Virus record (IMG/VR): IMGVR_UViG_3300027896_005002
Span: 59,488-123,487 of that record
DNA length: 64,000 nt
Strand: one strand, 5' to 3'
Source of the DNA: a virus
The number at the start of each line of letters is the position of its first letter. Within the stretch, counting starts at the first letter, position 1. Below are positions 13,958 to 30,094 of the stretch, one piece after another. The position numbers were made by a program, and so were the translations under genes. The notes beneath the pieces are model-generated. The model saw nothing but the letters and a program-made list of their open reading frames with translations, was not told the DNA's origin and made no database searches.

Positions 13958-14031
13958 GGGTGTAGCTAGATTTGAACTAGCGCATACCACCTTATCAGAG
14001 TGGTGCCGTAACCAAGCTTGGCTATACACCC
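13958..14031 (-). tRNA. tRNA-Ile (anticodon GAU)
   Basis: acceptor gggtgta/tacaccc, anticodon arm ccact-ctgataa-ggtgg (G-U closing), T-arm gctag-ttcaaat-ctagc. Confidence 0.65.
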
Positions 14032-14710: not shown

Positions 14711-14727
14711 TTTTCTCCTTTTAATAT

Positions 14728-14802
14728 GGTGGAGCTGACCGGGATCGAACCGGTGACCTCCTGCTTGCAAAACAGGCGCTCTCCCAATTGAGCTACAGCC
14801 CC
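14728..14802 (-). tRNA. tRNA-Ala (anticodon UGC), CCA encoded
   Basis: acceptor ggggctg/cagctcc, D-arm gctcaattgggagagc, anticodon arm cctgt-tttgcaa-gcagg, aCCA. Confidence 0.75.
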
Positions 14803-14803
14803 A

Positions 14804-15010
14804 TTAATTAATTGAACACTGCTTTTTTAATTTTCGTGCAGCACGAGCAGCACTACTAAAATATCCAGGATGTTCTAGCTTATATTTTGCCGAAAGTCCC
14901 GGATGTTCTTTCCTATATGTTCGAGCTGCTTTAATAAATTTTTTATGATATTTATAATGTTCACAATTTTTACAATTCATTTTATACCGTCCTATCTTCT
15001 TAATCAACAA
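14804..15010 (-). CDS. small basic Cys-containing protein
   Basis: 68-aa ORF with CKNCEHYKYH and KR-rich tail. Confidence 0.2.
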   Translation of the reverse strand: MLIKKIGRYKMNCKNCEHYKYHKKFIKAARTYRKEHPGLSAKYKLEHPGYFSSAARAARKLKKQCSIN

Positions 15011-15908
15011 AAGCTACAAATTTTGCACCGGCTGCCTGACTTTCAGTATTGAGAACAACTCGATGCCAAATATTTCCTAAATCAAGTGTTCGATGTTCTT
15101 TATGTGTTATTTTACCTTTTACCCAAACAGTTGCATTTCTTTGACGAACTTGCCAACTAATCCTTGGATTTTTTTGATCTTTTGGATCAAGGGCTTTAAA
15201 TTCTTCTTCAGTCAATCCAATTGACCGAGATTGTTCATTGAATCGAGAAATATAAACTTTAGTACCACCTGATCGATAAAGATTTTCTGCAAAATGAGAA
15301 TTTCCACGACCTCTGCTCATTGGTTCATGTCGATGAATTACTGTCAAAGATCCAGAAGGCACTTGAAAAGTCGGTTCAGCAATGAACATAAATTCACCCT
15401 GACGATGAATCTTTCGTCCTGAATTTAATTTTCGATGCCGTTTATGCATACGATTTGCTTTAAGTCCTTCTTGTTGTTCAACTTCCAAAACTTCTTTTGG
15501 TTTCAAATTTTGTTTTGCTTGAAAAACAGTTGCTGCTTTTTCAGGAACTGCACAAGTAAACCAGTTTCGTTCATCATGTCCGCAAAGAAATCTTGAAATT
15601 GATACTCTTCGTGGATCACTTAATTGAGAAAAAGTCGGATGACCATTCGGGTCTTTAACAAGAAGTAAAAGATGACGATCCTTTTTTTGAATATCAGTGA
15701 TCATCATTTCAATTTCTTTTTTAACTCGAATGTCAAAAAATTCACCTTCCGAATCTTTCCGAATATCAATCGAAAAAGACTGATTGTTATTCCAACGATT
15801 GTCAGGTTCTGAAAATTTCACTCGAGCTCCCATTAAAGAGAACTTTTTTTCAATAATTGTATTCATTAATTCACCTTGACCTTGATTTGTTTTTGTGTGA
15901 TCCATCAA
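15000..15908 (-). CDS. hypothetical protein (302 aa), in GC-richer island
   Basis: ORF track; composition about 35-40% GC vs about 28% flanks; no motif recognised. Confidence 0.3.
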   Translation of the reverse strand: MMDHTKTNQGQGELMNTIIEKKFSLMGARVKFSEPDNRWNNNQSFSIDIRKDSEGEFFDIRVKKEIEMMITDIQKKDRHLLLLVKDPNGHPTFSQLSDPRRVSISRFLCGHDERNWFTCAVPEKAATVFQAKQNLKPKEVLEVEQQEGLKANRMHKRHRKLNSGRKIHRQGEFMFIAEPTFQVPSGSLTVIHRHEPMSRGRGNSHFAENLYRSGGTKVYISRFNEQSRSIGLTEEEFKALDPKDQKNPRISWQVRQRNATVWVKGKITHKEHRTLDLGNIWHRVVLNTESQAAGAKFVAFVD

Positions 15909-16256
15909 CTATATATCTATAGCGAGGACCATCTTTTGTGTAAATTATTTCATGATCCCGTGCATATTTTTTATCTGCTCTCAATCGTAAAAGTTCGATT
16001 TTATAATGACATGTTAAACAATTTTTCATAATAATGTTGTTCCCATAACCAGGCTTCTGTTTTATCTCTACATTTGTCTAAGCCCTCGACCCGTCCGTCA
16101 TAGCGTTGCTCACCCGCTAGGACTGTTTGAGGTTGCACCCTCGGAAGTGTAAACGACCAATTAAGTCTCCTTCCTTAAGCAATAGTGGCCTGAGTTTCCT
16201 CACCGATAATCTAATATCATCGGCGCGTAGAGTCGGAACAACATTTTGAATCAAAA

Positions 16257-16339
16257 GCTGGAGGAGAGATTTGAACTCCCGACGGTGTTTCCACTCCGGA
16301 TTACAAATCCGGTGCACTCGACCACTATGCGACTCCAGC
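16257..16339 (-). tRNA. class II (long variable arm) tRNA with anticodon UGU (Thr anticodon on a Leu/Ser/Tyr-type body)
   Basis: acceptor gctggag/ctccagc, 3-bp D-stem gca/tgc, anticodon arm ccgga-tttgtaa-tccgg, 15-nt variable arm agtg-gaaa-cac-cgtc, T-arm gggag-ttcaaat-ctctc. Confidence 0.55.
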
Positions 16340-16347
16340 ATTTAAAG

Positions 16348-16480
16348 TTAGTCATATAAAACAATCGACCGTGATTTTCGAATTGCGCATTGACACTCGT
16401 GATCGCCGCGATTTTCTCAAGACAAGTTTTTCACCTGTTCACCTCACTGACAGTCTGCGCTCAACATACGGTTTTATATG
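16348..16480 (-). other. 15-bp perfect inverted repeat (ttagtcatataaaac / gttttatatgactaa) enclosing an about 100-nt GC-rich segment; possible ncRNA or regulatory element
   Basis: Seen directly; lies between HNH gene and tRNA (UGU). Confidence 0.3.
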
Positions 16481-16481
16481 A

Positions 16482-17066
16482 CTAATTTTCCACAACACCT
16501 CCTAAGATTTTCTCGACATAGATTCTATGTGCGAGGTTATTTGGGTTATAAGTAAAATTCATTGTGACATATTGACCTTTATTTGATCTTGGTACATAAG
16601 GCTTTGAAATCAATTTCAAACCAGCTTCTTCCGGTGTACGACCTCTTTTGATTACAACATTATGCCATCTACAAGCACAAACAGCATTTTCAAAAGAATG
16701 AACTGCTCCACCTCTACTTTTTGGTATTATGTGATCTAAAGTTCGTTCATCCGGTTGACACTTATATTTAAAAGCTTTTCCATCATTCTCAAAATGCCAG
16801 TATTGACAAATATTTTTATCTCTACGAAATACAGCTTCTTTATTGAAGCCGATTTCTTCTTTCTTGATTTTATATCCGGCAAACTCCAGTAATTGTACAA
16901 CAAATGGTCTTTTTAAACGAATTGTGGTGCTGCCAACCTCTTCACGTTCATCAGCAACAAGAACTTTTATTTTTTGTTTTGCCCACCATTTTAATACTTT
17001 GTCAAGATTTACTTCCGCCCAAAACTGATAGTTTCTATTTAATACAACTACTGAAGTCATAGTCAA
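16482..17066 (-). CDS. HNH endonuclease
   Basis: DHIIPKSRGGAVHSFENAVCACRWHNVVIKRG = HNH motif (D-H...N...C.C..HN). Confidence 0.6.
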   Translation of the reverse strand: MTMTSVVVLNRNYQFWAEVNLDKVLKWWAKQKIKVLVADEREEVGSTTIRLKRPFVVQLLEFAGYKIKKEEIGFNKEAVFRRDKNICQYWHFENDGKAFKYKCQPDERTLDHIIPKSRGGAVHSFENAVCACRWHNVVIKRGRTPEEAGLKLISKPYVPRSNKGQYVTMNFTYNPNNLAHRIYVEKILGGVVEN

Positions 17067-17162
17067 TTATTTTCCTTTCTTTTCAAAGATTTTACTTTGT
17101 ACATCTTGTGTCATACATTAAATAGCATTTACAATTCTTCATATTATCCTCCTATAAAAATT

Positions 17163-17239
17163 TGGTGTTGATGAGTGGAGTTGAACCACCGACCTTCTGA
17201 TTATGATTCAGATGCTGCTACCGACTGAGCTACATCAAC
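17163..17239 (-). tRNA. tRNA-Met (anticodon CAU), CCA encoded
   Basis: acceptor gttgatg/catcaac, D-arm gctcagtcggtagcagc, anticodon arm tctga-atcataa-tcaga, aCCA. Confidence 0.7.
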
Positions 17240-17260
17240 ATATTTACAATCTAATCTAAA

Positions 17261-17296
17261 AAAAAGCCCCGTTGTTTGTGGCAACAGGGCTTTTTA
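17261..17296. terminator. bidirectional rho-independent terminator
   Basis: aaaaaa-gccccgttg-tttgtgg-caacagggc-ttttt. Confidence 0.6.
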
Positions 17297-17454
17297 AATT
17301 CTTATATATAAGCCCTGTTACACTATGTGGCTCCTCTTGCTGTACTAATCGTAATACGCATAGATTTGACTACCACGAGTAACTTTATAAAATTATAATG
17401 CATATTTATCCTTTTGAGTAATAATCAAGTAAAAAGTCATAGATGGCCATTTTA

Positions 17455-18057
17455 TCAATAAAATATTAATTTTTTATTTTTCATTAAAATATCATTTATA
17501 TTTTTAATGTCTTTTAAAATATCAAAAATTATTTTTTTATGTCCTTCTTTTTGTAGATTGATCACAGGTATTGACCAATTATTTTTATCAGATTTAGTAA
17601 TTAATTCAGCTAATTTAATAGCTTGACCTGTTCCTCCCGAAGCTTCACCATCTTTCGTCCAACATATAACTAAATCAGTTGGTTTATCTAAATTAGCTCC
17701 TAAAATTTGAAAACAATTTCTAGACATCAATGCTTTTGTAAATTCTTTCAATCTATTCCATTCACAAATATCTCTAATACTCCAAACACTTTCTGCGTAA
17801 TCAATCGCAGTATCACTGTCAACATTCGGACCGCCAAAATATAATTCTGATGGATGTCTTTGAAATAACTTTTTTGGTAAATAAATTTCTTTTTTTCCTT
17901 TAACTTCATCACATCCATATTCAAAAGCAGAATCTGCTCCTTCTGCTGCACCACTTCGCAATGTCCATCCATTCAAAGCAAAAGCTTTAGCAATGTCAAT
18001 AATTAAAGTTATGACATTACTTGGCGTTTCTCTCGATCCAATGCCAGTGTAAATCAA
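17455..18057 (-). CDS. SLOG/DprA(Smf)-like Rossmann-fold protein
   Basis: IYTGIGSRETP...LRSGAAEGADSAFEYG resembles the DprA/LOG GxGsR....SGgA.G.D signature. Confidence 0.45.
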   Translation of the reverse strand: MIYTGIGSRETPSNVITLIIDIAKAFALNGWTLRSGAAEGADSAFEYGCDEVKGKKEIYLPKKLFQRHPSELYFGGPNVDSDTAIDYAESVWSIRDICEWNRLKEFTKALMSRNCFQILGANLDKPTDLVICWTKDGEASGGTGQAIKLAELITKSDKNNWSIPVINLQKEGHKKIIFDILKDIKNINDILMKNKKLIFY

Positions 18058-18114
18058 TGAACATCACTCATCAAATCTAAAACAATAGTATCATTGTCAT
18101 CAAATATGTCATTT

Positions 18115-18369
18115 TCATACAAAACATGAAAAACAATCGCCAAATTCATTTTCAATCGACCAATTTAACTTTGCAAGTGCTTTTGCATCATCCTCCGTTA
18201 ATTTATCAATAATATCATTTACATCAACTGAAAAAATGACATCATGTTCTGCACCTTCAATAAGCCTTTCAGTATATTTTGACAAAATCTTAAGTCCTTG
18301 AAAAGCATTATCACCTTCCCAACTGGATTCAGTACTCTTAAAAATTTGTTTTAATTGTTCTCTAGTCAT
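18115..18369 (-). CDS. hypothetical protein
   Basis: ORF track. Confidence 0.2.
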   Translation of the reverse strand: MTREQLKQIFKSTESSWEGDNAFQGLKILSKYTERLIEGAEHDVIFSVDVNDIIDKLTEDDAKALAKLNWSIENEFGDCFSCFV

Positions 18370-18386
18370 AATCCTCCATTAATGCA

Positions 18387-18593
18387 TTATAAAATTACTA
18401 AATCTTTATATTTACGAAAATTTCGCAAAACTTTTTTATCACATTGACCAAAAACAAATGTTTTTCCAGGACGTAAGTTAATTGTCCCATCATCTATTTT
18501 GATTATATAAGATTGTTTTCCTGTATTAATGACTTTAATTTCTTTGTCACAAATCTTAATTACTTTGTCCTGAACCTCAAATACAACTTCCAT
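18387..18593 (-). CDS. hypothetical protein
   Basis: ORF track. Confidence 0.2.
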   Translation of the reverse strand: MEVVFEVQDKVIKICDKEIKVINTGKQSYIIKIDDGTINLRPGKTFVFGQCDKKVLRNFRKYKDLVIL

Positions 18594-18601
18594 TGTTTTT
18601 C

Positions 18602-19057
18602 CTATTGTTGCTCAATTATTTCATCTACCCCTTCATCAAGACTTGGCTCTTCAAACTTTGCAGTCATCTTATCAATTACAGTTTGCCATTGTTCTCTTGA
18701 TATATTTCTAGAATCTAACATTCTATAACCTAAGGGATTTGGCTTTTTACAATATACAAATATTCTTTTATCAAAAGCTTTACAATGCGATAACCAAGCT
18801 GCACGATGCTGTTTATCAATATTAGTTTCATCAATTATCACATTAAATCCATTAACAATAGCCTTTTCAAGACATGTAATCGTCATTTCATGAACAAGAG
18901 GTTCTAAATTTTCAGTGTACAAATAATATCCATTTATCATTTGTCGAAATGAATCTCTATTAACAATTACTATATTTGGCTCTTCTTTAACTTTCATACG
19001 AGACCACGTACTCTTACCTGAGCCTGGAAGCCCAATCATTATATAAACTATTTTCAT
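18602..19057 (-). CDS. polynucleotide 5'-kinase (T4 Pnk kinase-domain-like, P-loop)
   Basis: IGLPGSGKSTWSR Walker A; VNRDSFRQ; IIDETNIDKQHRAAW parallel T4 Pnk motifs (GCPGSGKSTWAR, NRDDYRQ, DTNLNPERRLAW); no fused phosphatase domain. Confidence 0.6.
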   Translation of the reverse strand: MKIVYIMIGLPGSGKSTWSRMKVKEEPNIVIVNRDSFRQMINGYYLYTENLEPLVHEMTITCLEKAIVNGFNVIIDETNIDKQHRAAWLSHCKAFDKRIFVYCKKPNPLGYRMLDSRNISREQWQTVIDKMTAKFEEPSLDEGVDEIIEQQ

Positions 19058-19272
19058 TAATTTTTCCTAAAATATTTCATTGTATGCCATATTATATATA
19101 AAAAAGTAAAAACTATTACTGGCACAATCATTAATTTAAAAGTAAACAGCATCATCCTCAAGCTTGCAACAAACACACTAGACAATATCATTAAAACAAA
19201 AGCTGCAAGAAATAATGAACATACAAAAAATAACATTTTTAAAAATATATTAGGTTTTTTCATACTATCCAT
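19057..19272 (-). CDS. small membrane protein (2 TM)
   Basis: Hydrophobic stretches FFVCSLFLAAFVLMILSSVFV and MIVPVIVFTFLYII. Confidence 0.25.
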   Translation of the reverse strand: MDSMKKPNIFLKMLFFVCSLFLAAFVLMILSSVFVASLRMMLFTFKLMIVPVIVFTFLYIIWHTMKYFRKN

Positions 19273-19636
19273 CCTTTTTTTGTAATGAAAAAATATTCAT
19301 TCTTAAAATATATTTTTCATCAGGTAATGAAGGTTTAAAATTCGTATATAAAGCATTAATATCAATCTCGTGGATTGTATAAATAATAGGCCATATTTTC
19401 AATATTAATTTTGGACACCATCGTTTTTTAAAAGCTTGCCACCAATCTCGAGGATATTTTATTACTTTTTTTGTTACATTTTCTCCCCATAAAAAACCTT
19501 GTATACGTAATTCTAATTCTTTAGCAAAAACCTCTGTAATATCAAATTTTTCAAAACAAAAATATCTAGAAAATACTTTTGTAAATGCTATTTGAATTTT
19601 TTGAAGTCGAATTTCTTCAGAACAAAAATTATTCAT
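19265..19636 (-). CDS. hypothetical protein
   Basis: ORF track. Confidence 0.2.
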   Translation of the reverse strand: MNNFCSEEIRLQKIQIAFTKVFSRYFCFEKFDITEVFAKELELRIQGFLWGENVTKKVIKYPRDWWQAFKKRWCPKLILKIWPIIYTIHEIDINALYTNFKPSLPDEKYILRMNIFSLQKKDG

Positions 19637-20568
19637 GAAGTAATATTAGACCTTAATGTAATATATGGTGTAGTCAAAGTTAAAGGATCTGGCATTGTCC
19701 AAAGTAGTCTACCAAGCTCATCGACAGATTGATATGCTGCAGTATTAATAAAATGCCACGTTCGCACATCATCTGCTGGATCATTAGCATTTTGTTCTGA
19801 CATTGATTGATCTCTATAAGCCAATCCTATACCTGCACCAGTAGCAACGCTTGGTGTTCCTCTAGCTGTTTCTGCACCTCTATATCCATTTATACCTCTC
19901 ACAGTCGGTGATGCAGGAGTTGACATAGCCTCATTCATTTTTTTCCAACCACGTTCTTCCAATTTTGCTATTCGATTATGAATTCTGTCTCTTTGATACA
20001 TTACATTATCATGTAACACATAAAATATTTTTTGTTTACAATGATCGATAGCATTAATTTGTGATTCTAACAATTTATCAGAAAATAGAGGATTATTTAT
20101 ATAGGCAAGACCACAACAAGAGAGATCAACATTAGACATTATACTTATTAACGCAGATACGGCTTCAGAATCATTTTTAAATTTTTTTCTCGGTCTTATT
20201 ATTTGAACAATTGCATTGTTTCGTTTAAAAGTCCACGGTTGATTTATAATTTGTAATCCCAAATACATTGCAGCAATATCAAAATCAGGCCCAGGAAGCT
20301 GAACGAATCCACAAGCAATCAATCTATCATATATTCTTCTTGCTGACCGTGGCAATGCCATTATGTCTACGTCGTGTATCTTAAGATCAGCCAAACTATC
20401 CCTGACAGCGCCACCAAAAATAGCTGCATCAGTGTCAGACAATAAACCATCAATATCACCATCAAGATAATCTGACATAGCTTTCCGTATCTTAATGACA
20501 TCTAAATCATAATCATTTCGAACTTTAACTACGTCATCATTCATATTTCTTCCAGACATAAATGACAT
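19633..20568 (-). CDS. nucleotidyltransferase, tRNA CCA-adding-enzyme head-domain-like
   Basis: IFGGAVRDSLADLKIHDVDI matches the class II CCA-adding/poly(A) polymerase motif GGxVRD...DxD; C-terminal region divergent and GC-richer. Confidence 0.45.
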   Translation of the reverse strand: MSFMSGRNMNDDVVKVRNDYDLDVIKIRKAMSDYLDGDIDGLLSDTDAAIFGGAVRDSLADLKIHDVDIMALPRSARRIYDRLIACGFVQLPGPDFDIAAMYLGLQIINQPWTFKRNNAIVQIIRPRKKFKNDSEAVSALISIMSNVDLSCCGLAYINNPLFSDKLLESQINAIDHCKQKIFYVLHDNVMYQRDRIHNRIAKLEERGWKKMNEAMSTPASPTVRGINGYRGAETARGTPSVATGAGIGLAYRDQSMSEQNANDPADDVRTWHFINTAAYQSVDELGRLLWTMPDPLTLTTPYITLRSNITS

Positions 20569-21187
20569 TCTTCGTCGACTCTAAAGACCTACTAAATAAC
20601 CACGGAAATCTATACTCTTTATGCGACAAATTCAAAATCTTCTTCTTTGCGTGCACTGTCTCATGACCAACCATTATATATCTATCAACATTCTTTATAA
20701 CCCATTCTTCATCTATGCCAAACATGTTACCACCATTATCATGTTCAGCTTCATTATATTTATGAGTAATCCAACATCCAATGACGGTCTTAGGTCTATA
20801 TTTTTTTATAGCTGCAATACCATCAAGCTTAATAACATCGTCAGGATATTTAGTTGTCGGCTGACGCATCATCGTGTAATAAGCTTTTATCTCTGGAGTC
20901 TCCATGTACCTTGAATCTGTAGCTGGAACTCCAAGACACCTCGCTAATGCACCATGACCTGCACCAATCTCTATCGTAGTCGTAAGATCTATTTCCTGTT
21001 TAAACCAATCCACTAATTCAATGGTCGGAAAACAATAAAATCCGTTTTTATGTCCAAATAATGCAAGATGTGTTTGAGGAATTTTGGATAATACAGAAAC
21101 AGGAACTACTTTCAACAGATCATTGTCTAACAAAACATGATCTAAATAAGAAACATCTTCATTTACAAGAAAAGCTGCCATAATCAA
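20537..21187 (-). CDS. class I SAM-dependent methyltransferase
   Basis: IEIGAGHGALARCLG glycine-rich SAM-binding motif I. Confidence 0.45.
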   Translation of the reverse strand: MIMAAFLVNEDVSYLDHVLLDNDLLKVVPVSVLSKIPQTHLALFGHKNGFYCFPTIELVDWFKQEIDLTTTIEIGAGHGALARCLGVPATDSRYMETPEIKAYYTMMRQPTTKYPDDVIKLDGIAAIKKYRPKTVIGCWITHKYNEAEHDNGGNMFGIDEEWVIKNVDRYIMVGHETVHAKKKILNLSHKEYRFPWLFSRSLESTKNVIYVWKKYE

Positions 21188-21198
21188 CCTTAATTTAA

Positions 21199-21282
21199 TG
21201 CTCGAGACCGGAATCGAACCGGTATGGAATTGCTTCCGAAGGATTTTAAGTCCTTTGCGTCTACCTGCTTCGCCACTCGAGC
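21199..21282 (-). tRNA. tRNA-Leu (anticodon UAA), class II
   Basis: acceptor gctcgag/ctcgagc, anticodon arm aagga-cttaaaa-tcctt, long variable arm cggaagcaattccata, T-loop ttcgatt. Confidence 0.7.
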
Positions 21283-21555
21283 TTAACCTTCATTTGTAGA
21301 TCTACCTGTACCTTCACAAAAAGTACATTTCTTCCCAGGTCGAAATGGTTCAGGTAAAAGCCAACCACGTCCTTCACATTTTTTACAATTAAAATATAGC
21401 TTACGTATATTAAACCATTTCATAATAAAAAACTGTATAAAAAGATATCTCCATTGACCAAATTGCCATTTAATTCCCCACGGAAACATTTTGTCATAAA
21501 ATGATTTAGGTTCAACGGGTCTTCTAAATTGAGGTAATCCAAATGGAGGTAACAT
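21283..21555 (-). CDS. small Zn-ribbon protein
   Basis: CKKCEGRG...CTFCEGTG. Confidence 0.25.
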   Translation of the reverse strand: MLPPFGLPQFRRPVEPKSFYDKMFPWGIKWQFGQWRYLFIQFFIMKWFNIRKLYFNCKKCEGRGWLLPEPFRPGKKCTFCEGTGRSTNEG

Positions 21556-21750
21556 TTATGTGTCCTTTGGAAAAATTATCGGAAATAATAAACAACAAAT
21601 ACAAACCAAAATAAAAACAAAAAAGACAACAGGCCACAATAAAATGATTTCAACACTATCTTTCGTAGTCTGAGCTTGTAAAATCAATTTATTATGATAC
21701 AAGAAAAATAGAATTAAAACGACTATTAACCAAATGTATAAAATAATCAT
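21556..21750 (-). CDS. small membrane protein
   Basis: Two hydrophobic helices. Confidence 0.2.
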   Translation of the reverse strand: MIILYIWLIVVLILFFLYHNKLILQAQTTKDSVEIILLWPVVFFVFILVCICCLLFPIIFPKDT

Positions 21751-21777
21751 TTAAGGCCTATCATCACATTAAAAAAT

Positions 21778-21857
21778 AGGAGAGGAGGGATTTGAACCCT
21801 CATCTGCCACATACCGTTACGATTATCCGCCTTATAAGAGCGGCTCGGTACTCTCCT
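21778..21857 (-). tRNA. noncanonical tRNA-like gene, anticodon UAU (Ile/AUA), reduced D-arm; same architecture as 8152-8230 and 9170-9252
   Basis: acceptor aggagag/ctctcct, ta-ccgag, anticodon arm ccgct-cttataa-ggcgg, ataatcgtaacggtatgtggcagat, T-arm gaggg-ttcaaat-ccctc. Confidence 0.45.
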
Positions 21858-21858
21858 G

Positions 21859-22209
21859 TTATTTTATTGATCCTGGTTTATAAATATCGCCATTTCTATT
21901 CAGCACATTAAACTGTACAATAGTACTTCTATATGTTTTATATGGACCTTCCATCATCATTGTTTCTTCTCGTTCTTTAATTATTCTTTTCTCTATTGTC
22001 GTTAACAAATGAATTTTAACAACAATACATGGTAACGGACATATATACAATGAATTATCTTTAACACTCCAAAAAAGTCCGACCCAAAAATCATACCATG
22101 CAAAAAATAACTTACACTTAATTATCGGTCTATCAATAAAAAGATGATATTTAACAATCAACAAAAAAGTCTTCCATTTCAACTTAATTATCGTCAATCT
22201 CTTTAACAA
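21859..22209 (-). CDS. hypothetical protein
   Basis: ORF track. Confidence 0.2.
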   Translation of the reverse strand: MLKRLTIIKLKWKTFLLIVKYHLFIDRPIIKCKLFFAWYDFWVGLFWSVKDNSLYICPLPCIVVKIHLLTTIEKRIIKEREETMMMEGPYKTYRSTIVQFNVLNRNGDIYKPGSIK

Positions 22210-22441
22210 ATTTAAGATATCCTTTTAAAAACTTTTTAACTGATCTACCCTTTTCATCAAAAACTTCAACACCATAATTATCTTGCTGCTGATTAAAACG
22301 AATCTTTGTCATTCGACAAAAATATTTATTTCCTTGTTTATCCTCAACTATAGAAGTCTTTTTTGCTGCTGCAGATGCTGCCCCTCTGGTGCATTGTATT
22401 GAGGTCACACCATCTTTTTCACTAATTATTGCTTCTCCCAT
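22184..22441 (-). CDS. hypothetical protein
   Basis: ORF track. Confidence 0.2.
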   Translation of the reverse strand: MGEAIISEKDGVTSIQCTRGAASAAAKKTSIVEDKQGNKYFCRMTKIRFNQQQDNYGVEVFDEKGRSVKKFLKGYLKFVKEIDDN

Positions 22442-22641
22442 TAAATTTCTACTCCTATTGGTTCTTTGTTTTTCTGCAATCGTTGCATTTTTACAACACT
22501 ATCTTCAGATAAATTTAATTTACTGATTACGTCTTTAGCTTTACGACGAGCATCAACATCATCAGTTTCTGAAAATGGTATTATAATCTTTAATTGATAG
22601 TCCATAAGTTTTTCCAAGAAAAGAGGACAACCTTGTCATTT

Positions 22642-23154
22642 TTAATTTAATGTTTTTCGATCTTCGTAACAATGTTGAATAATACATGCTGACTTATCTA
22701 ACAATGACTGAATCTGCTTAGAAACATCCTTCAATTGCTTATAATAATCCATCACTTCTTTAAATTCAGGATTACTATCTAATTGTAAAACAACTGCAGA
22801 ATTTAAATCTTTCTCAGTCAATGCAATTATAGTCTTACTCGGAACATTTTTACAAACAAAAATATTTGCTCCCCATATCATTCCCATCAATCCTTTAAGC
22901 AAATTCTCTCTCTTAGTCTCCGGTTCAATAACATCCCTACCAAACTTTCTAAAATCCGAATAAACTACTGCATTAGTGATCAAACAATCAACTCTTGTAT
23001 CTTCTTCTCTTTCAAGCGCAGCAAACAAATCAGCTAGAACATCAGGAACAACATGATCAAAAGCAGTCTTAACATAACCTTTTACATTCACAAATTGTAA
23101 AAACTTATCCCAAGACTCGGTTACTTTTGAATAATAAAAAAATACATCATCCAT
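22642..23154 (-). CDS. hypothetical protein
   Basis: ORF track. Confidence 0.25.
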   Translation of the reverse strand: MDDVFFYYSKVTESWDKFLQFVNVKGYVKTAFDHVVPDVLADLFAALEREEDTRVDCLITNAVVYSDFRKFGRDVIEPETKRENLLKGLMGMIWGANIFVCKNVPSKTIIALTEKDLNSAVVLQLDSNPEFKEVMDYYKQLKDVSKQIQSLLDKSACIIQHCYEDRKTLN

Positions 23155-23235
23155 AATTATTCTTTCCAGACAAAATTATCCTCCTTTCCTAAAGATAATA
23201 TATGTCATTAAAAGAATAAATTTATGGTATGGAAT

Positions 23236-23589
23236 TCAAACTTCTATAATTATGTTATTCCATGCACCCGGACAAATCGTAGCTGTCGGCAGCAAACTTG
23301 CCATATTCTGAGCACCAACAGAATTAAAACTATGTATTATTATATTCTTAGGCTGTCGTCCTGGGTGCGCCTCAAGCCATTGCGCTACCTCATAACCAGT
23401 ATCTTTCCCAGATTTAACATATGTCTGACCGCCCAAGTCGTGATCAAGAAATAGATATTGCCAAGTGCTCTCAATCAAATGTTGTATTGTACTTTTAACT
23501 GTTGAAGTTTGTACAACTTCATGCCCAATTAATTTTTGTCGAAAAATCTTTTGTCTATCATCATCATCATCTAAAATTAATATTCTCAT
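23236..23589 (-). CDS. CheY-like receiver-domain-like protein (weak)
   Basis: MRILILDDDDD N-terminus, LFLDHDLGG, IIIHSFN resemble a receiver fold. Confidence 0.3.
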   Translation of the reverse strand: MRILILDDDDDRQKIFRQKLIGHEVVQTSTVKSTIQHLIESTWQYLFLDHDLGGQTYVKSGKDTGYEVAQWLEAHPGRQPKNIIIHSFNSVGAQNMASLLPTATICPGAWNNIIIEV

Positions 23590-23591
23590 TT

Positions 23592-24443
23592 TTATTTCTC
23601 AAATTTATAATAAAAAAACCAACCATTAGCGGATTTTCGTGTACCTTTTAATACTGTTATAATATTTGATGGATAAGTATTTAATTGCTTAGCTGCTTGT
23701 TTTTTGTTCGAAAATTCTAATTTTTGACCATTTTTTACAGCAAAAAATATTTTTCTCTTAAGTTGTTCAACAAAATCATCATACATTTTTTTAGTTATAT
23801 ACTTAAAAGAAAATATCCAATTATTTTTAGATTTAACTTTTCCATGCAAAATACAACTAATAAACCTTTGACTAACCTTAGTATAAATAGATGCTTCGTA
23901 TTGTGTTTTAAATTTCTTTAATTCATTAACATTTCTTGCATAAAAAGCTTTTCCACCATGACACTTACTATGCTTAATTCTTTCTTCAATTTTATTAAAC
24001 CTTTTATTCTGAGATTTACCCTGTTTTTTTCTGGCTTTATCTGACTTAAAATAATTTATTAAACCCAAACTTAAATTTTTTCGTGCTTCTAAATTAAACT
24101 TTCCATTACTTCCGCCTTCTTTTAAATTATATCCAAAAGTTTTATTAGTACTATTAAACTTTTTAATATATTCTTTTTCTTTTTTATCAAGTTCTAATTG
24201 TGTATTGCATTTACATAATATGTCCCAAGTAAATTTATCAAAACCATATTTCATTAAAGCATTATGAAAATATGATTGATTTTTTGGCTTTTTTATTAAA
24301 CTTTTCAAACAAACTCGATGATGAGCTTTAATTCTACCTTGTAATGATCGCCATGTTTGACCAATATACACTTTATTTGTTAAAATATTTGTAGCTTTAT
24401 AAATGATACTTTGTTCATACAAGTATTCATCTAAAATATTCAT
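23592..24443 (-). CDS. GIY-YIG homing endonuclease
   Basis: IYKATNILTNKVYIGQT ... R...H ... GYNLKEGG = GIY-YIG catalytic motifs; basic C-terminal DNA-binding region. Confidence 0.65.
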   Translation of the reverse strand: MNILDEYLYEQSIIYKATNILTNKVYIGQTWRSLQGRIKAHHRVCLKSLIKKPKNQSYFHNALMKYGFDKFTWDILCKCNTQLELDKKEKEYIKKFNSTNKTFGYNLKEGGSNGKFNLEARKNLSLGLINYFKSDKARKKQGKSQNKRFNKIEERIKHSKCHGGKAFYARNVNELKKFKTQYEASIYTKVSQRFISCILHGKVKSKNNWIFSFKYITKKMYDDFVEQLKRKIFFAVKNGQKLEFSNKKQAAKQLNTYPSNIITVLKGTRKSANGWFFYYKFEK

Positions 24444-25495
24444 TTACCTGTCTTATCTAAGTATACTGGATCTCGTTGCTTTAAAAATAACCGGCCAAAA
24501 CCAACAATATATTTCTCTATCATCGGCTTTATCACTATGCCCTCTCTCAACCTATCGATTAATACACTCTTTCCATTTGAAGCAACTTGGACTGATCGGC
24601 CATCTAACCAATCTTTAAAGATCACATTACTCGCTATAATTGGTACAAATCTCTCTCTCAAACCAATCTTATCCAAGAGAACATCAATCTCTCCAAAATC
24701 AATAGCTTTACTATTGACTTCAATATCAAAAATCTTTATCGTATGCTTTTTCAAATTATAATAATTACCCTGTACTTTAGGCCCGATTATCTCACCCCGA
24801 ATCGTAATCGCACAATTCGGAAAATAATTGACCTTCAAATTACTCACTGCGTCTATCAAACCATCATTACGAGCGACCTGCCAAAAAGTATGCTCCTCAT
24901 GATCAGGCAAATTTATGATAGCATGACCGTGCGTGCACACGCTCATCTTATCATCTACATCAATGAAGACAGCAGCATTAGTGCCTTCTATTTTCTCAGA
25001 TATGAACACCCTCTCATTCATCAATTGCTCAACGATATCAGGATGTCTATCGCAGCCTTCAATATCATAATTATAAACCATCTCCGGTCGCTGTACCAAA
25101 TTACCAGTGCTCGTCATAACTTCTGGTGCTTCATACTTTGTCACACTCAAAGCAGCTGTTAGATCTACCGGTAAAACGTCCACCTTAAGATAAGCCTTAA
25201 CACTAGACGCAGATGTGACATATCCTTGAGAAATTTCATTTCTTAATTTACAAGTTTTAATTCTATTTTTATCTTTACCTGATAAAAAATTCTGAATATT
25301 TTGTTGTAATATAAATTCCTGAGGCAGTATAGAATCTATTGGAAAATAAACTACACTATCTCCAACTTTATATAAATCTTTTTGGACAACAAATTGATAT
25401 GTCATCCCTTCAACTTGACCAAGTTCCAATTTATCAGCATTTGGATGCGGATAAATTTTAGATATTTTTTTTACTTCCACAGCAAAAGTACTCAT
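24440..25495 (-). CDS. ATP-dependent RNA ligase (Rnl2/Rnl5-like nucleotidyltransferase core) fused to N-terminal Trbp111/CsaA-like tRNA-binding OB domain
   Basis: N-term VEVKKISKIYPHPNADKLELGQVE (tRNA-binding OB signature hPnADkL); motif I EKIEGTNAAVF (KxxG), motif IV REGIVIKP (EGxxxK), motif V LFLKQRD...K. Confidence 0.55.
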   Translation of the reverse strand: MSTFAVEVKKISKIYPHPNADKLELGQVEGMTYQFVVQKDLYKVGDSVVYFPIDSILPQEFILQQNIQNFLSGKDKNRIKTCKLRNEISQGYVTSASSVKAYLKVDVLPVDLTAALSVTKYEAPEVMTSTGNLVQRPEMVYNYDIEGCDRHPDIVEQLMNERVFISEKIEGTNAAVFIDVDDKMSVCTHGHAIINLPDHEEHTFWQVARNDGLIDAVSNLKVNYFPNCAITIRGEIIGPKVQGNYYNLKKHTIKIFDIEVNSKAIDFGEIDVLLDKIGLRERFVPIIASNVIFKDWLDGRSVQVASNGKSVLIDRLREGIVIKPMIEKYIVGFGRLFLKQRDPVYLDKTGK

Positions 25496-25525
25496 TTTAA
25501 TCCCTTCCCTAATGTCATTAACTAA

Positions 25526-27031
25526 TCATAGTTGTGTAACAAGTTGTTTAGAAATAATTTTTTTAATCATACGTCTAGTAATTTTATATTTTTTAATTAA
25601 TACTCCAATCTTAAAACCATTTTGATAATCATTAATTATATCATTGATTCTGAATGAAACATTTCTATCACACCATCTCTTTTTAATAAAATATCCACTA
25701 TTTTTTATACTAATATTATTATCTAAAAACAATTGTTTAACCTTTTTATTCAACACATTATATTTTCTACAAATTTTACTTAATGAATTATTATTTTTAT
25801 AATCATCAATTATTTGTTTTGCAAGATCACTTGTTATTATAGTTTTTATTTTGTAAAATCGTTTTATAGTATACTTTGTATTGTACTTAATAAATCTTTT
25901 TACTTGTGTTTGTGATACATTCCATAATTTTGCAAGTATAGCAAATGTTCCACGTTTATTAATATCAACTTTTTCAAGATCATTTAATCTATTTTGACGT
26001 AATTCATTTCTTATTTTTATAATTTTACTTATTTTTTCATTTTTTCTTTTAGTAATCTCTGCTAGATTATTAAGCGCTACCAACTGTTTATCAGTATATT
26101 GTGAAATTAAAACATCTCTTTTTTCAGATGATTTAAGAATAGATTTTATTTCTTGAAACTTATCTTTTGAATTATAACAAATTGCTCGCCAACAAATTCT
26201 AAATACCGTAATATTATTTAATTTAAGCAATGCATCTTTCTTTTTATCAATTTCCTGACGTCGCTTATATCTATAATGTTGTTGACCGTCAATTTCAATA
26301 GCTAATGATAATTTAGGAAAGAAAAAATCTACTCTATAAACAGAAAAAGGAAATTCAGTATAAAAATCATCATTAAGTTTATATCCTTCATTAATTAAAA
26401 ATTTAAAAAAAGTTTTCTCAGCATATGACTGATTGTCTTGTTTATACCAAGAATTAGCTCTATTTTCAGCATGCATTATTTTACATTTTTCAGACCACTT
26501 TTTTCTTGATTCATCTGACCACTTAAAAGTATATTTTTTATGAGCTAATTTCGATGCATCTGCGACAGATCGTCTATAACATTTTAATGCAAAATGTATG
26601 AGACCTGTATCAAAACCTTGATTATGTAATTCACGCGATGATAATCCAGAATCATATAGATTACGAATTTTTATAACATCATTATCTTCATAACATTTAT
26701 GTCGTTTATAATTACCACTATTAAATGATCTATTACATTTTTTACAAATAATTTTTTTATCACTAAAACTATTTATTGCTTTTTTCCTATATATTTTAGT
26801 ATGTGCAATTTTTAATGTATCACTAGCAGTTCTTTTCAAATCTTTTATACATCTATTTATTTGATTTCGTGTATAACCTATTTGAATTATATCTTTTATT
26901 AATAATCCAGAATTATACAAATCTCTAATTTTCTGTCTATCGTTCTCAGATATCTTACAATATTTCTTATGTGAAAAAAAACTTCCAGGATTCGTAAAAA
27001 AATTACCGCAATTCTCGCAACATAATTTCAT
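25526..27031 (-). CDS. homing-endonuclease-like protein: Zn finger, multiple HTH (NUMOD-like) repeats, DUF559/Vsr-like nuclease domain
   Basis: CENCGNFF, IRDLYNSGLLIKDI / IRNLYDSGLSSREL repeats; YRVDFFFPKLSLAIEIDGQQHY...DKKKDALLKLNNITVFRI. Confidence 0.6.
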   Translation of the reverse strand: MKLCCENCGNFFTNPGSFFSHKKYCKISENDRQKIRDLYNSGLLIKDIIQIGYTRNQINRCIKDLKRTASDTLKIAHTKIYRKKAINSFSDKKIICKKCNRSFNSGNYKRHKCYEDNDVIKIRNLYDSGLSSRELHNQGFDTGLIHFALKCYRRSVADASKLAHKKYTFKWSDESRKKWSEKCKIMHAENRANSWYKQDNQSYAEKTFFKFLINEGYKLNDDFYTEFPFSVYRVDFFFPKLSLAIEIDGQQHYRYKRRQEIDKKKDALLKLNNITVFRICWRAICYNSKDKFQEIKSILKSSEKRDVLISQYTDKQLVALNNLAEITKRKNEKISKIIKIRNELRQNRLNDLEKVDINKRGTFAILAKLWNVSQTQVKRFIKYNTKYTIKRFYKIKTIITSDLAKQIIDDYKNNNSLSKICRKYNVLNKKVKQLFLDNNISIKNSGYFIKKRWCDRNVSFRINDIINDYQNGFKIGVLIKKYKITRRMIKKIISKQLVTQL

Positions 27032-27215
27032 TATATTCTCCTTTTAGAATATAATAAATTATAAACAAAGAATTAATTCCAATTACATTACAACCGCTAT
27101 TCAAATGTAATAAGCAGACGGACAATATTAACAATTAAATAGTGATGTAAAAAAGTAATTAACCATAGGTCAAAAATTACTAATATATTTAGTTAAATCT
27201 TCAAAACTATAAAAT

Positions 27216-27302
27216 GGGCCGGGAAGGATTTGAACCTCCAGTGTTTAGCACATATGGCACTTGATCTACAGTCAAGCGGTTTCACCATTCACCCACCGAC
27301 CC
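27216..27302 (-). tRNA. tRNA-Tyr (anticodon GUA), class II
   Basis: acceptor gggtcgg/ccggccc, anticodon arm cttga-ctgtaga-tcaag, long variable arm tgccatatgtgctaaacact, T-arm ggagg-ttcaaat-ccttc. Confidence 0.7.
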
Positions 27303-27307
27303 TTAAT

Positions 27308-27568
27308 TCATTTTCTTATTACTTTCCATACCGGTGTTGGCTCATAACTTACCAGCTCACCATTACGCCAATAATATCGTGGATGAGGATCATAGAGAAA
27401 TTTAAAATCGCAAATGTTATAAGGATCATTGAATTTTCGATAAGCATTCCCATTCGGGACATCTTCAATTCTCCGAATAACTTTCGAATAATTTTTCTTC
27501 CAAAATTTTCTTTTACCAGCATTCTTATAACCATCTGTGAACCACGGCGCGCGATACGATCTGGACAT
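27308..27568 (-). CDS. hypothetical protein
   Basis: ORF track. Confidence 0.2.
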   Translation of the reverse strand: MSRSYRAPWFTDGYKNAGKRKFWKKNYSKVIRRIEDVPNGNAYRKFNDPYNICDFKFLYDPHPRYYWRNGELVSYEPTPVWKVIRK

Positions 27569-27634
27569 ACATTGCTCCTTGTAAAGGTGTTACAACATAT
27601 GTTCCTCCTTTGTTAATTATTTAATGTCTTTGGT

Positions 27635-27707
27635 GTGGGTGGTCGGACTTGAACCGGCAGCGTCTGACTTGGAAGGACAGCATTCTAGCCAATTGAATTA
27701 CACCCAC
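27635..27707 (-). tRNA. tRNA-Gly (anticodon UCC), slightly imperfect stems
   Basis: acceptor gtgggtg/cacccac, D-arm attc-aattggcta-gaat, anticodon arm ctgtc-cttccaa-gtcag (one U-U), T-loop ttcaagt. Confidence 0.55.
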
Positions 27708-27728
27708 GAATTTATCATCAATTTATAT

Positions 27729-27803
27729 TGGTAGCCCATAGCGGAATCGGACCGCTGAATCCTCATAGAAAGTGAGGTGTCTTAACCACTTGACGAATGG
27801 GCC
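27729..27803 (-). tRNA. tRNA-Glu (anticodon UUC), CCA encoded
   Basis: acceptor ggcccat/atgggct, anticodon arm cctca-ctttcta-tgagg, T-loop ttcgatt, aCCA. Confidence 0.65.
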
Positions 27804-27812
27804 GTGATAATC

Positions 27813-27890
27813 AGGAGCGAAGAGACTCGAACTCTCATTTTCAACCAAATTACAAGTATATGGTTTTGGAGACCACACTGTTACGCTCCT
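27813..27890 (-). tRNA. tRNA-like gene with good acceptor/T-arm but irregular anticodon region (undetermined)
   Basis: acceptor aggagcg/cgctcct, T-arm gagag-ttcgagt-ctctt; middle ccaaaaccatatacttgtaatttgg has no clean 5-bp/7-nt anticodon arm. Confidence 0.35.
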
Positions 27891-27899
27891 ACAAAATTT

Positions 27900-27971
27900 A
27901 GCGGGCAAGAGAATCGAACTCTCATTCGTGTGGTTATGAGCCACATCGAGGCACCACGCCTCGCCACCCGC
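27900..27971 (-). tRNA. tRNA-Met/Ile2-like (anticodon CAU) with imperfect acceptor/T pairing
   Basis: D-arm gagg-cgtggtg-cctc, anticodon arm tgtgg-ctcataa-ccaca, T-loop ttcgatt; acceptor gcgggtg vs tgcccgc needs two G-U. Confidence 0.45.
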
Positions 27972-27978
27972 GATAAAT

Positions 27979-28188
27979 TTATATAGTAGATCCATATGCT
28001 AAAACATCCATAAATTTCTGTCTGACTGCAATTTCAAAATCAGTCATTAACTGCTTATTTTCGTAAAAACATATTCGCAAACATGTTTTGATATTTTCTG
28101 GACAATCTGAAAAATATTCATGCACAAATTCATCAACTGTCAACGGTTCTGATATTTTATCAATTATTGTTTCAACAAATTTGTCCAT
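27979..28188 (-). CDS. hypothetical protein
   Basis: ORF track. Confidence 0.2.
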   Translation of the reverse strand: MDKFVETIIDKISEPLTVDEFVHEYFSDCPENIKTCLRICFYENKQLMTDFEIAVRQKFMDVLAYGSTI

Positions 28189-28275
28189 TTAAAACAACTC
28201 CTAACTTCCTGAAAATAAACTTGAATCATAATACTCTTAACTCTTCTACAATAATCTAATTGACTATTTAACTAT

Positions 28276-28701
28276 ATGAAACATTCTCCTCATCATTTAC
28301 TACAAGAAAGACTTTACAAAAGACCTTGGCGTCTACTAATCGGCTGCATCATGCTAAACCTCACCACAAGATCTCAAGTTGATAAAGTAATCTACAAGTT
28401 CTTCAAATTATGTCCTAAACCACAAGATGCCATCAAAATTCCTAAAAGACGATTAATAAGACTATTAAAACCTCTCGGCCTCGTCAATAGACGAGTTAAC
28501 ACCATTAAAAACTTCTCAAAAGACTTTATCGAAAAAAGTTGGACATATCCAATAGAACTTTACGGTATTGGAAAATATGCCAATGATAGTTATTTGCTTT
28601 TCTGTGCAGATGTGTGGAAGAATGTCCGACCGACAGATAAAGCATTAAAACTTTATATTAAATGGCGGAGGAGACAGGAGTTGAACCTGCATGTCTGTTA
28701 A
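28276..28701 (+). CDS. HhH-GPD DNA glycosylase, MBD4 glycosylase-domain-like
   Basis: RPWRLLIGCIMLNLTT...LLKPLGL...YPIELYGIGKYANDSYLLFC closely parallels the MBD4 catalytic domain (DPWKLLIATIFLNRTS...LLKPLGLY...[20 protein letters not shown]); 3' end overlaps tRNA-Ser. Confidence 0.5.
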   Translation: MKHSPHHLLQERLYKRPWRLLIGCIMLNLTTRSQVDKVIYKFFKLCPKPQDAIKIPKRRLIRLLKPLGLVNRRVNTIKNFSKDFIEKSWTYPIELYGIGKYANDSYLLFCADVWKNVRPTDKALKLYIKWRRRQELNLHVC

Positions 28702-28748
28702 GACGATGGTTTTCGAAACCATTGCTCTAGCCATTAAGCGACTCCTCC
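28663..28748 (-). tRNA. tRNA-Ser (anticodon CGA), class II, CCA encoded
   Basis: acceptor ggaggag/ctcctcc-g-CCA, anticodon arm atggt-ttcgaaa-accat, long variable arm gtcttaacagac, T-loop ttcaact. Confidence 0.7.
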
Positions 28749-28755
28749 GAAAAAA

Positions 28756-28831
28756 TGGCGGAGCGTACGGGAATTGAACCCGTTTCCACGGTTTGACAAA
28801 CCGTAATTCTAAGCCATTAAACTAACGCTCC
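28756..28831 (-). tRNA. tRNA-Asp (anticodon GUC), CCA encoded
   Basis: acceptor ggagcgt/acgctcc-g-CCA, anticodon arm acggt-ttgtcaa-accgt, T-arm acggg-ttcaatt-cccgt. Confidence 0.75.
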
Positions 28832-28837
28832 ATATAA

Positions 28838-28924
28838 TGGCGGAGGGTGAGGGACTTGAACCCCCAGGTCCTTTCGGATCCGCTTTTCAAGAGCGACACG
28901 CTACCAATTACGCTCTAACCCTCC
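28838..28924 (-). tRNA. tRNA-Ser (anticodon UGA), class II, CCA encoded
   Basis: acceptor ggagggt/accctcc-g-CCA, anticodon arm tcgct-cttgaaa-agcgg, variable arm tcc-gaaa-gga, T-arm ggggg-ttcaagt-ccctc. Confidence 0.7.
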
Positions 28925-28929
28925 ATAAT

Positions 28930-30045: not shown

Positions 30046-30094
30046 ACCTGCTGATTTCTAAGACCAGTGCATCTACCAATTGTGCAACGCGCGC
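30021..30094 (-). tRNA. class I (short variable arm) tRNA with Leu anticodon UAG
   Basis: acceptor gcgcgcg/cgcgcgc, anticodon arm ctggt-cttagaa-atcag, 5-nt variable caggt, T-arm atgag-ttcgaat-ctcat. Confidence 0.55.

Follow-up and report, generated by a model that had tools for sequence, protein, structure and literature searches.

RNA repair in jumbo phages has been catalogued by Iyer, Anantharaman, Krishnan, Burroughs and Aravind (2021, Viruses 13:63, PMC7824862), who predicted that the cRec (cyclic-phosphate processing Receiver) protein opens 2',3'-cyclic phosphate ends of RNA and reported its operonic linkage to RNA ligases. Among the enzymes that such systems bring to mind, the characterised RNA ligases of the Rnl5 family act on duplexes, closing 3'-OH/5'-PO4 nicks in which RNA provides the 3'-OH strand (PMC4408790), and RlaP extends the 3' ends of damaged RNA by one or two nucleotides (PMC12776372). 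Here we describe a set of genes of this general kind in the tRNA island of a 64,000-nucleotide stretch of viral DNA (positions 59,488 to 123,487 of IMG/VR record IMGVR_UViG_3300027896_005002; "the window" below). No GenBank phage matched the region by megablast. Two contigs, a metagenomic one of 415,903 bp in ENA and one from JGI, have genes whose products are 100% identical to the window proteins; the window is therefore taken to come from an uncultured huge phage of about 416 kb. A first-pass annotation, made from the sequence alone, had grouped eight of its genes into an RNA end-healing, sealing and tRNA-maintenance toolkit that could counter host anticodon nucleases: a polynucleotide kinase, a metallophosphoesterase (MPP), an RNA ligase, a nucleotidyltransferase (NTase), a peptidyl-tRNA hydrolase, an exonuclease, a methyltransferase and a HAD-like phosphatase. 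All eight correspond to real open reading frames (ORFs; Table 1). Our analysis centres on a smaller core, the kinase, the Rnl5 ligase and a cREC protein, whose most likely function, held here with moderate confidence, is to heal and seal RNA breaks, plausibly in tRNA that host ribotoxins have cut.

The kinase scores 70 bits against Pfam AAA_33 (cutoff 27), and its top match in the PDB is the kinase domain of T4 Pnk (E 1.8e-12). Its P-loop, GxxGxGK(S/T) with K15 and S16, reads GLPGSGKST where T4 has GCPGSGKST, and the general base D35 and R38 of the NRDxxR motif fall at the same positions in both proteins (VNRDSFRQ and, in T4, INRDDYRQ). R116-N-I-S-R120 fits the RNxxR pattern of the lid, whose arginines in T4 Pnk we take to be Arg122 and Arg126; in the alignment the region that follows is shorter than in relatives. 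As had been proposed, the protein consists of the kinase domain only, ending at 151 amino acids (aa) with no fused C-terminal HAD 3'-phosphatase domain, and judged by its residues it is catalytically complete. Kinases of the same family in cultured phages are annotated as pseT or lie beside tRNA or RNA ligases. The missing HAD phosphatase bears out the view that the domain arrangement here is not that of T4; as an idea, however, this was already described for jumbo phages (PMC7824862).

The ligase consists of an N-terminal OB-like (oligonucleotide/oligosaccharide-binding) N domain followed by an NTase domain. The N domain, at residues 6-93, scores 60.5 bits against PF21189 (PHA02142; cutoff 27), and the protein passes the TIGR02306 equivalog cutoff (RNA_lig_DRB0094, DraRnl) over its full length, with 167 bits against 151.15. 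It also aligns over its full length with Naegleria NgrRnl in the PDB (E 5e-19), which places motif I lysine K168 opposite NgrRnl K170. The window protein has K168, E235, R317-E318-G319, R335 and K339, all of them invariant across 41 family members. The PHA02142 and RNA_ligase domains, the TIGR02306 score, the NgrRnl alignment and the invariant residues therefore identify the predicted RNA ligase as an Rnl5 enzyme, and its residues indicate that it, too, is catalytically complete. The two lysines whose absence on alignment was to count against the repair proposal, K15 of the kinase P-loop and K168 of ligase motif I, are both in place. The kinase and ligase genes are on the same strand, 5.4 kb apart, with no strong terminator between them.

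The third member of the core, the cREC gene, escaped the first-pass annotation. It scores 62.3 bits against PF20274 (cutoff 27), its sequence contains the acidic receiver pocket (LILDDDDD and FLDHD), and only an inserted GIY-YIG homing endonuclease gene parts it from the ligase gene; this insert has a 4-nt overlap with the ligase stop codon and ends 2 nt before cREC. On these grounds we regard cREC as the likeliest partner of the ligase, a predicted 2',3'-cyclic phosphodiesterase (CPDase). The minus strand from 27000 to 17295 has no strong terminator, and the first one downstream of this stretch is a hairpin at its end (Table 1); a single long transcript may thus extend from the ligase through cREC to the kinase operon. 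A promoter scan gave nothing above shuffled expectation.

The MPP had been put forward as the possible 3'-phosphatase or CPDase partner. Its identity stands (36 bits against Metallophos, cutoff 21.5), but as the CPDase partner it gives way to cREC, its gene lying 12-18 kb from those of the kinase and ligase. Because it has a profile match, linkage to the ligase and a published prediction of activity, cREC is the better candidate for the first step of 3'-end healing, and the MPP is left as one that may act as a 3'-phosphatase or CPDase. At viral-contig locus L160 (the L numbers used here denote such loci) an Rnl1-Pnkp-Rnl5 cassette contains a homolog of the window MPP (E 1e-10); a PDB sequence search with the MPP returned nothing. 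The MPP gene has a 4-nt overlap with the radical-SAM (S-adenosylmethionine) gene upstream of it, to which it is translationally coupled. The possible HAD-like phosphatase is a 125-aa protein of a family of more than 300 in which D6, H8, T36, K90 and D104-D105 are invariant, a pattern like that of HAD motifs I-IV, except that His replaces the second Asp. The motif pattern is thus compatible with the proposed assignment, but profile support is almost absent: the window gene had no profile or PDB match, and Pfam HAD is touched by just 2 of 31 family members. A DSP-PTPase-family phosphatase gene just beyond the tRNA island (33016-33546(-)), with a weak 'Swiss Army Knife' PTP-SAK match, is a further candidate for an RNA-end phosphatase.

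From the domain identities, the catalytic residues, the gene order and coupling, and the recurrent linkages described below, we infer a set of substrates (tRNA among them), an order of steps and a counter-defence purpose that would run as follows. A host ribotoxin would cut RNA, most plausibly tRNA, leaving 2',3'-cyclic-phosphate and 5'-OH ends. The cREC protein would open the cyclic phosphate, and a phosphomonoesterase, for which the 125-aa HAD-like protein, the MPP and the DSP-PTPase are the candidates, would remove the resulting phosphate. The stand-alone kinase would phosphorylate the 5'-OH, and the Rnl5 ligase would then seal the 3'-OH/5'-PO4 break by way of lysyl-AMP on K168. The NTase, whose gene is translationally coupled with those of the kinase operon, may restore nucleotides missing from the 3' end, as RlaP does; the peptidyl-tRNA hydrolase may free peptides from broken tRNAs, and the exonuclease may trim their ends.

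We asked whether Rnl5 ligases keep such company elsewhere. The family is large (7,230 cluster representatives at E <= 1e-3). When a single ligase or kinase protein was used to scan viral contigs, nothing came up; loci were gathered with an alignment-based scan, which yielded 79 viral-contig loci, 75 of them distinct; neighbours were counted within 10 kb and compared by Fisher test with 115 control loci. At least one other repair-type gene is present at 26 of the 75 distinct loci: MPP at 18, an Rnl1-type ligase at 8, a Pnk-type kinase at 7, Thg1 at 7 and cREC at 1. MPP, Rnl1 and Thg1 are enriched over the controls (p between 1e-4 and 2e-3). A kinase directly adjoins Rnl5 in four lineages, as a T4-type AAA_33+HAD_PNKP protein in L160 and L180 and as a stand-alone protein of about 148 aa in L127-129 and L135; cREC directly adjoins it in L184, and Thg1 does so at two loci. 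MPP and Rnl1 genes, too, are direct neighbours of Rnl5 in other viral contigs, and the ligase is often surrounded by tRNAs. Three or more tRNAs occur at 12 of the Rnl5 loci, and at L135 19 tRNAs accompany the ligase and its adjoining stand-alone kinase. Among the window ORFs tested, none was found to be RtcB, a full-length CCA enzyme, Rnl1 or Thg1.

A number of observations weigh against healing and sealing as the function of the core. The characterised activity of Rnl5 enzymes is the sealing of duplex nicks, so that sealing within an anticodon loop is here assumed, and the physiological role of the family has itself been termed uncharted (PMC4408790, PMC5397189). The activity of cREC is a published prediction (PMC7824862), and no secure 3'-phosphatase was found in the window. 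Kinases are not enriched within 10 kb of Rnl5 (9/79 loci against 12/115 controls, p 0.82), and the kinase-Rnl5 link is suggestive through direct adjacency only. Around the Rnl5 genes of four annotated phages the neighbours are of replication type, and homologs of the kinase, the NTase and the methyltransferase are absent there. As a unit, the eight-gene set is not conserved elsewhere. Apart from the window phage, kinase, methyltransferase and NTase genes come within 10 kb of one another just in two or three related huge-phage lineages, where the gene order differs and no ligase is nearby. Finally, small NTases with the fold of the window NTase occur, among BFVD models, in T7-like phages with no obvious RNA-repair genes.

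The most serious alternative, which we hold to be unlikely though well short of negligible, is that there is no functional module here at all. The genes would then be independent accessory cargo in a hypervariable stretch rich in homing endonucleases, brought near one another by the shared ancestry of the variable region, with Rnl5 sealing nicks at RNA-DNA junctions during replication or repair and with the kinase and NTase unrelated to it. The lack of a conserved set, the varying gene order among relatives and the kinase counts all suit such a view. So do the primase, topoisomerase and helicase genes beside Rnl5 in Mic1, BcepSaruman and CcrPW, the radiation sensitivity of Deinococcus that lacks DraRnl (PMC5397189), and the homing endonucleases themselves, of which the region has at least six (three DUF559, one GIY-YIG and two HNH) interspersed with the tRNAs. 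What it does not readily accommodate is that the ligase is repeatedly found, in independent contigs, directly beside a kinase, cREC or Thg1 gene, that MPP, Rnl1 and Thg1 are enriched near Rnl5, and that the pairing of cREC with a ligase has been published as recurrent (PMC7824862). We favour RNA healing and sealing for the core. What survives of the counter-defence proposal is the complete kinase and Rnl5 ligase together with the linkages of Rnl5 to repair genes, but not the roles given to the NTase, the methyltransferase and the HAD-like protein, nor the MPP as first partner. Likewise, the linkage recurs but the eight genes as a conserved module do not, and the locus is most plausibly a loosely organised RNA break-repair set in a tRNA island, the wider eight-gene toolkit being a plausible grouping rather than a demonstrated module.

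The kinase gene is the last of a tight chain in the order methyltransferase, NTase, a 123-aa protein (p123), a 71-aa hydrophobic protein (TM71) and kinase, with successive overlaps of 32, 4, 8 and 1 nt; as read from these overlaps, the chain is translationally coupled. A CCA-less tRNA-Leu(UAA) gene is directly upstream of it. A 200-aa SLOG/DprA-like protein (17455-18057(-); GSRETP...SGAAEGADSAF, weak DNA_processg_A match) closes the kinase operon just before the terminator-like hairpin.

The NTase, a supposed CCA-adding-type head, is one of a small metagenomic family, 27 proteins in all, in which GGAxRD..DxD..NVDxSxCG is invariant. Within motif A (GGxVRD...DxD), which reads GGAVRD..DVD in the window protein, the invariant residues are G52, G53, R56, D57, D66 and D68. 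An AlphaFold2 (AF2) model is confident at residues 20-215, which comprise a head and a neck, and the 44 best Foldseek PDB matches of this model are class II CCA-, CC- or A-adding enzymes or poly(A) polymerases. BFVD models place small NTases of the same fold in giant viruses as well. The protein had no Pfam match, PF10127 (RlaP) included, and the PolyA_pol gathering score (cutoff 23) was not reached, 21 bits being the highest value obtained for a homolog. Its C-terminal tail (residues 226-311) is not conserved and is disordered, with a predicted local distance difference test score (pLDDT) below 50, and the homologs stop at about 210 aa.

This class II head and neck bear on a second alternative, that the set matures the phage's own tRNAs: the NTase would add CCA to 11 of them, the exonuclease would trim 3' trailers and the methyltransferase would modify tRNA. 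The 3' ends of the 24 tRNA genes, read directly, encode CCA in 13 cases and lack it in 11, so the statement that many of these tRNAs have no encoded CCA is correct. The ERI1/RNase T type of the exonuclease and the position of the CCA-less tRNA-Leu at the head of the methyltransferase-NTase operon would also be in keeping with maturation. Class II CCA enzymes carry a motif B (RRD) and a motif D (EDxxR), the latter being the nucleotide template. In the window family neither motif is kept; NVDxSxCG, and a variable position before R195..R199, are found instead. Since these motifs and the tRNA-binding body and tail domains are missing, the NTase is not a CCA-adding enzyme, and what remains of the original assignment is the class II head and neck fold. 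In addition, the genome of one relative (L001) encodes a full 436-aa CCA enzyme only 4.4 kb from its NTase gene, most loci with NTase homologs are not tRNA islands, and hosts already supply CCA-adding enzymes. Maturation of the phage's own tRNAs is thus, to our minds, rather improbable.

The neighbours of the NTase family bear on a role in repair. Of its 24 distinct loci, 14 have repair-type neighbours (kinase, cREC, minimal ligase, MPP or Rnl1); the methyltransferase family has them at 9 of its 73 (p 2e-5, window phage left out). When all ORFs at 115 loci were clustered, neither family had a broadly conserved neighbour, and the sole large co-cluster proved to be an artefact, an antisense ORF within the methyltransferase gene. 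Four independent lineages encode, 0.8-2 kb from their NTase homologs, a minimal ligase of about 230 aa that comprises just an adenylyltransferase domain (DNA_ligase_A_M 1.5e-11, RNA_ligase 1e-6; L011/L012, 11982-12683; L016, 12128-12820; L017, 5312-5977; L024, 11510-12148). At L163, 6 kb downstream of an Rnl5 ligase, a metallophosphoesterase gene and the gene of a distant member of the NTase family overlap (16819-17469 and 17459-18094), forming a compact MPP-NTase pair. We tentatively suggest that the minimal class II NTase might represent an undescribed RNA-repair family, related to CCA-adding enzymes by head and neck alone, that restores damaged RNA 3' ends before ligation, in the manner of RlaP, and that in the window phage would act in a coupled unit with an end-marking methyltransferase and the Pnk-type kinase; this proposal is appreciably weaker than that for the core. 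With neither a Pfam nor a PHROG name, the NTase family is nonetheless the most novel element of the finding.

The methyltransferase stood up in part. Its AF2 model is of high quality (pLDDT 95), and its PDB fold matches, weak as they are (E 1e-4, template modelling (TM) score about 0.39), all fall among the class I SAM methyltransferases; E73xG75xG77 of motif I and D91, after beta-2, are invariant in its family. Fold and SAM motifs thus agree with the assignment, but there was no Pfam, PHROG or NCBIfam match, and the neighbour counts given above do not associate the family with repair. Hen1 is not among the 50 PDB fold matches listed, nor was there a profile match to it. In L007 and L008 the genes that lie upstream of the methyltransferase homologs were tested as possible NTase relatives and are not related.

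The NTase homologs have neighbours of another sort. The gene next downstream is AcrVA2-like in L001 (10824-11639) and an Acb3 anti-CBASS (cyclic-oligonucleotide-based antiphage signalling system) gene in L002 (10611-11423) and L003 (6981-7793); the methyltransferase was tested as a homolog of these genes and is not homologous to them. Precomputed Pfam annotations place Gad2 (PF26128) on 5 of the 27 NTase homologs, weakly where marked, and Gad2 is a phage NTase-domain anti-Gabija protein (bioRxiv 10.1101/2023.05.01.538930). Because of these annotations and neighbours the NTase may have an anti-defence role, and similar small NTases do occur in T7-like phages; but the idea that the whole methyltransferase-NTase-p123-TM71-kinase operon is an anti-defence or host-takeover unit, with a Gad2-like NTase modifying a host factor or signalling nucleotide rather than repairing RNA, earns the least credence of all, since direct Pfam scans of the window NTase and six homologs (three of them Gad2-annotated) found no Gad2 match, five of those six matching PolyA_pol only and below threshold, a PADLOC scan of ten proteins gave zero matches, Gad2 is a 400-aa protein of different architecture, and the NTase neighbourhoods are enriched for kinase, cREC, ligase and MPP genes.

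Table 1. Features of the window discussed in the text, with their positions and the evidence for each.
Feature	Position	Strand	Evidence or remark
Stand-alone T4-Pnk-type polynucleotide 5'-kinase domain	18602..19057	-	Pfam AAA_33 3e-19; phrog_505 polynucleotide kinase; T4 Pnk PDB
Rnl5-family (DraRnl/NgrRnl-type) ATP-dependent RNA ligase	24440..25495	-	Pfam PHA02142 + RNA_ligase; TIGR02306; NgrRnl PDB
cREC (cyclic-phosphate processing Receiver) protein	23236..23589	-	Pfam PF20274 7.3e-17
Calcineurin-like metallophosphoesterase (MPP)	6298..7017	-	Pfam Metallophos 1.2e-08
125-aa HAD-like protein, candidate 3'-phosphatase	14333..14710	-	D6-x-H8, T36, K90, D104-D105
Minimal class II (PolyA_pol/CCA-type) nucleotidyltransferase	19633..20568	-	Invariant motif; AF2 model; Foldseek PDB + BFVD
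Class I (Rossmann) SAM-methyltransferase-like protein	20537..21187	-	AF2; Foldseek HemK, KsgA, METTL21D, TrmA
123-aa protein (p123)	19265..19636	-	4-nt overlap with NTase; weak sub-threshold Imm65 match
71-aa hydrophobic (membrane-like) protein (TM71)	19057..19272	-	Sequence; coupled to both flanking genes
Intrinsic-terminator-like hairpin, 14-bp stem + T run	17261..17295	-	First strong one downstream of ligase-to-kinase stretch
PTH2 peptidyl-tRNA hydrolase	5246..5635	+	Pfam PTH2 1.5e-32; NCBIfam arch_pth2
DEDDh 3'-5' exonuclease, ERI1/KapD type	10954..11508	-	Pfam RNase_T 3e-14
tRNA island, 24 tRNA genes	1371..30948	.	ARAGORN; 3' ends read directly
tRNA-Leu(UAA), no encoded CCA	21199..21282	-	No spacer to same-direction protein genes
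GIY-YIG homing endonuclease between ligase and cREC	23592..24443	-	Pfam GIY-YIG 1.4e-08, I-HmuI NUMOD-like
DUF559/HTH (helix-turn-helix) homing-endonuclease-like gene, directly upstream of ligase	25526..27031	-	Pfam DUF559 3.5e-07
Homing-endonuclease-type genes	1521-2498(+), 12906-13949(-), 16482-17066(-), 23592-24443(-), 25526-27031(-), 55872-56645(-)		

The peptidyl-tRNA hydrolase and the exonuclease were both recognised correctly at the outset. The former matches PTH2 over its full length and above threshold (PF01981, 112.6 bits; TIGR00283, 108.5 bits against a cutoff of 82). The latter scores 54 bits against PF00929 and has the DxE and Hx4D motifs; its closest PDB matches are ERI2 and ERI1 at 1e-11, with VDFEAT and HHRGVDD aligned to ERI2. 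Radical-SAM genes overlap both the PTH2 gene (4365-5270(+) with 5246-5635(+)) and the MPP gene (7014-7847(-) with 6298-7017(-)), which suggests that PTH2 and the MPP are co-expressed with radical-SAM chemistry, possibly of a tRNA-modifying kind. PDB searches gave nothing for one of these radical-SAM genes and a generic radical-SAM match only for the other.

Several further features of the window were noted. The homing-endonuclease load of the tRNA island is unusually dense, the ligase gene being flanked by two such genes, one of which parts it from cREC. The first tRNA cluster holds a DUF488-N3a protein (1030-1362(+)) and an ORF with a weak HEPN match (2771-3688(+)); the start of this ORF overlaps a tRNA-Arg, and its true start must therefore be further downstream. 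A second, weak Pol-beta-NTase-like ORF (52604-53203(+); SGGWAWH...DVDIF) lies upstream of a phosphoribosyl pyrophosphate (PRPP) synthetase gene (53488-54447(+)), with a NADAR-domain gene (44048-44509(+)) further upstream; these look like parts of functions centred on nicotinamide adenine dinucleotide (NAD) and ADP-ribose. A full-length membrane protein of the Na+/Ca2+ exchanger family (54905-55825(+), E 1.7e-65) is an unusual auxiliary gene for a phage.

The counter-defence concept is already in the literature (PMC7824862), and the value of this locus therefore lies in its specific, testable parts rather than in a new concept. If the core of kinase, cREC and Rnl5 ligase works as proposed, it would give Rnl5 ligases a physiological role, provide a first experimental handle on the predicted cREC cyclic phosphodiesterase, and add a further example of huge phages shielding translation from host tRNA nucleases. 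The NTase family, with 24 distinct lineages and enrichment near repair genes, is a tractable candidate for a new RNA-end-modifying enzyme.

The jumbo-phage systems catalogued previously (PMC7824862) resemble the window in combining tRNAs with ATP-dependent RNA ligases, polynucleotide kinases, phosphoesterases (2H, cRec, HAD and calcineurin-like), Pol-beta NTases and PTH2. The window differs from that catalogue in its Rnl5-type ligase, in a kinase with no fused HAD phosphatase, in an NTase that is neither RlaP nor a full CCA enzyme, and in the homing endonuclease that splits the ligase-cREC pair. With T4 Pnkp and Rnl1, which repair the anticodon loop and so counter PrrC, it shares the Pnk active-site residues and an ATP-dependent ligase in a phage; unlike in T4, the kinase carries no HAD domain, the ligase is an Rnl5 enzyme with an OB-like N domain and without the tRNA-specific C-domain of Rnl1, and the two genes are 5.4 kb apart. 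The ligase is closest in plan to DraRnl and NgrRnl (PDB 5COT; PMC4408790, PMC7261155), which likewise have an N domain and an NTase domain, no C-domain, and motifs I, III, IV and V; its identity to NgrRnl is about 25-30%, and it differs in being phage-encoded, located in a tRNA island and known here from its sequence. Bacterial Pnkp-Hen1 also has a kinase, a metallophosphoesterase, a ligase and a methyltransferase in one genome region; in the window, by contrast with the Pnkp fusion, these are separate genes 12-18 kb apart (TIGR04075, 20.5 bits against a cutoff of 750), the methyltransferase has no specific similarity to Hen1, and the ligase is of a different family. Finally, the window NTase is, like RlaP (PF10127; PMC12776372), a small NTase of the Pol-beta superfamily that recurs near RNA-repair genes; it differs from RlaP in giving no PF10127 match and in having a class II (PolyA_pol head) fold, and one relative genome (L007) encodes both.

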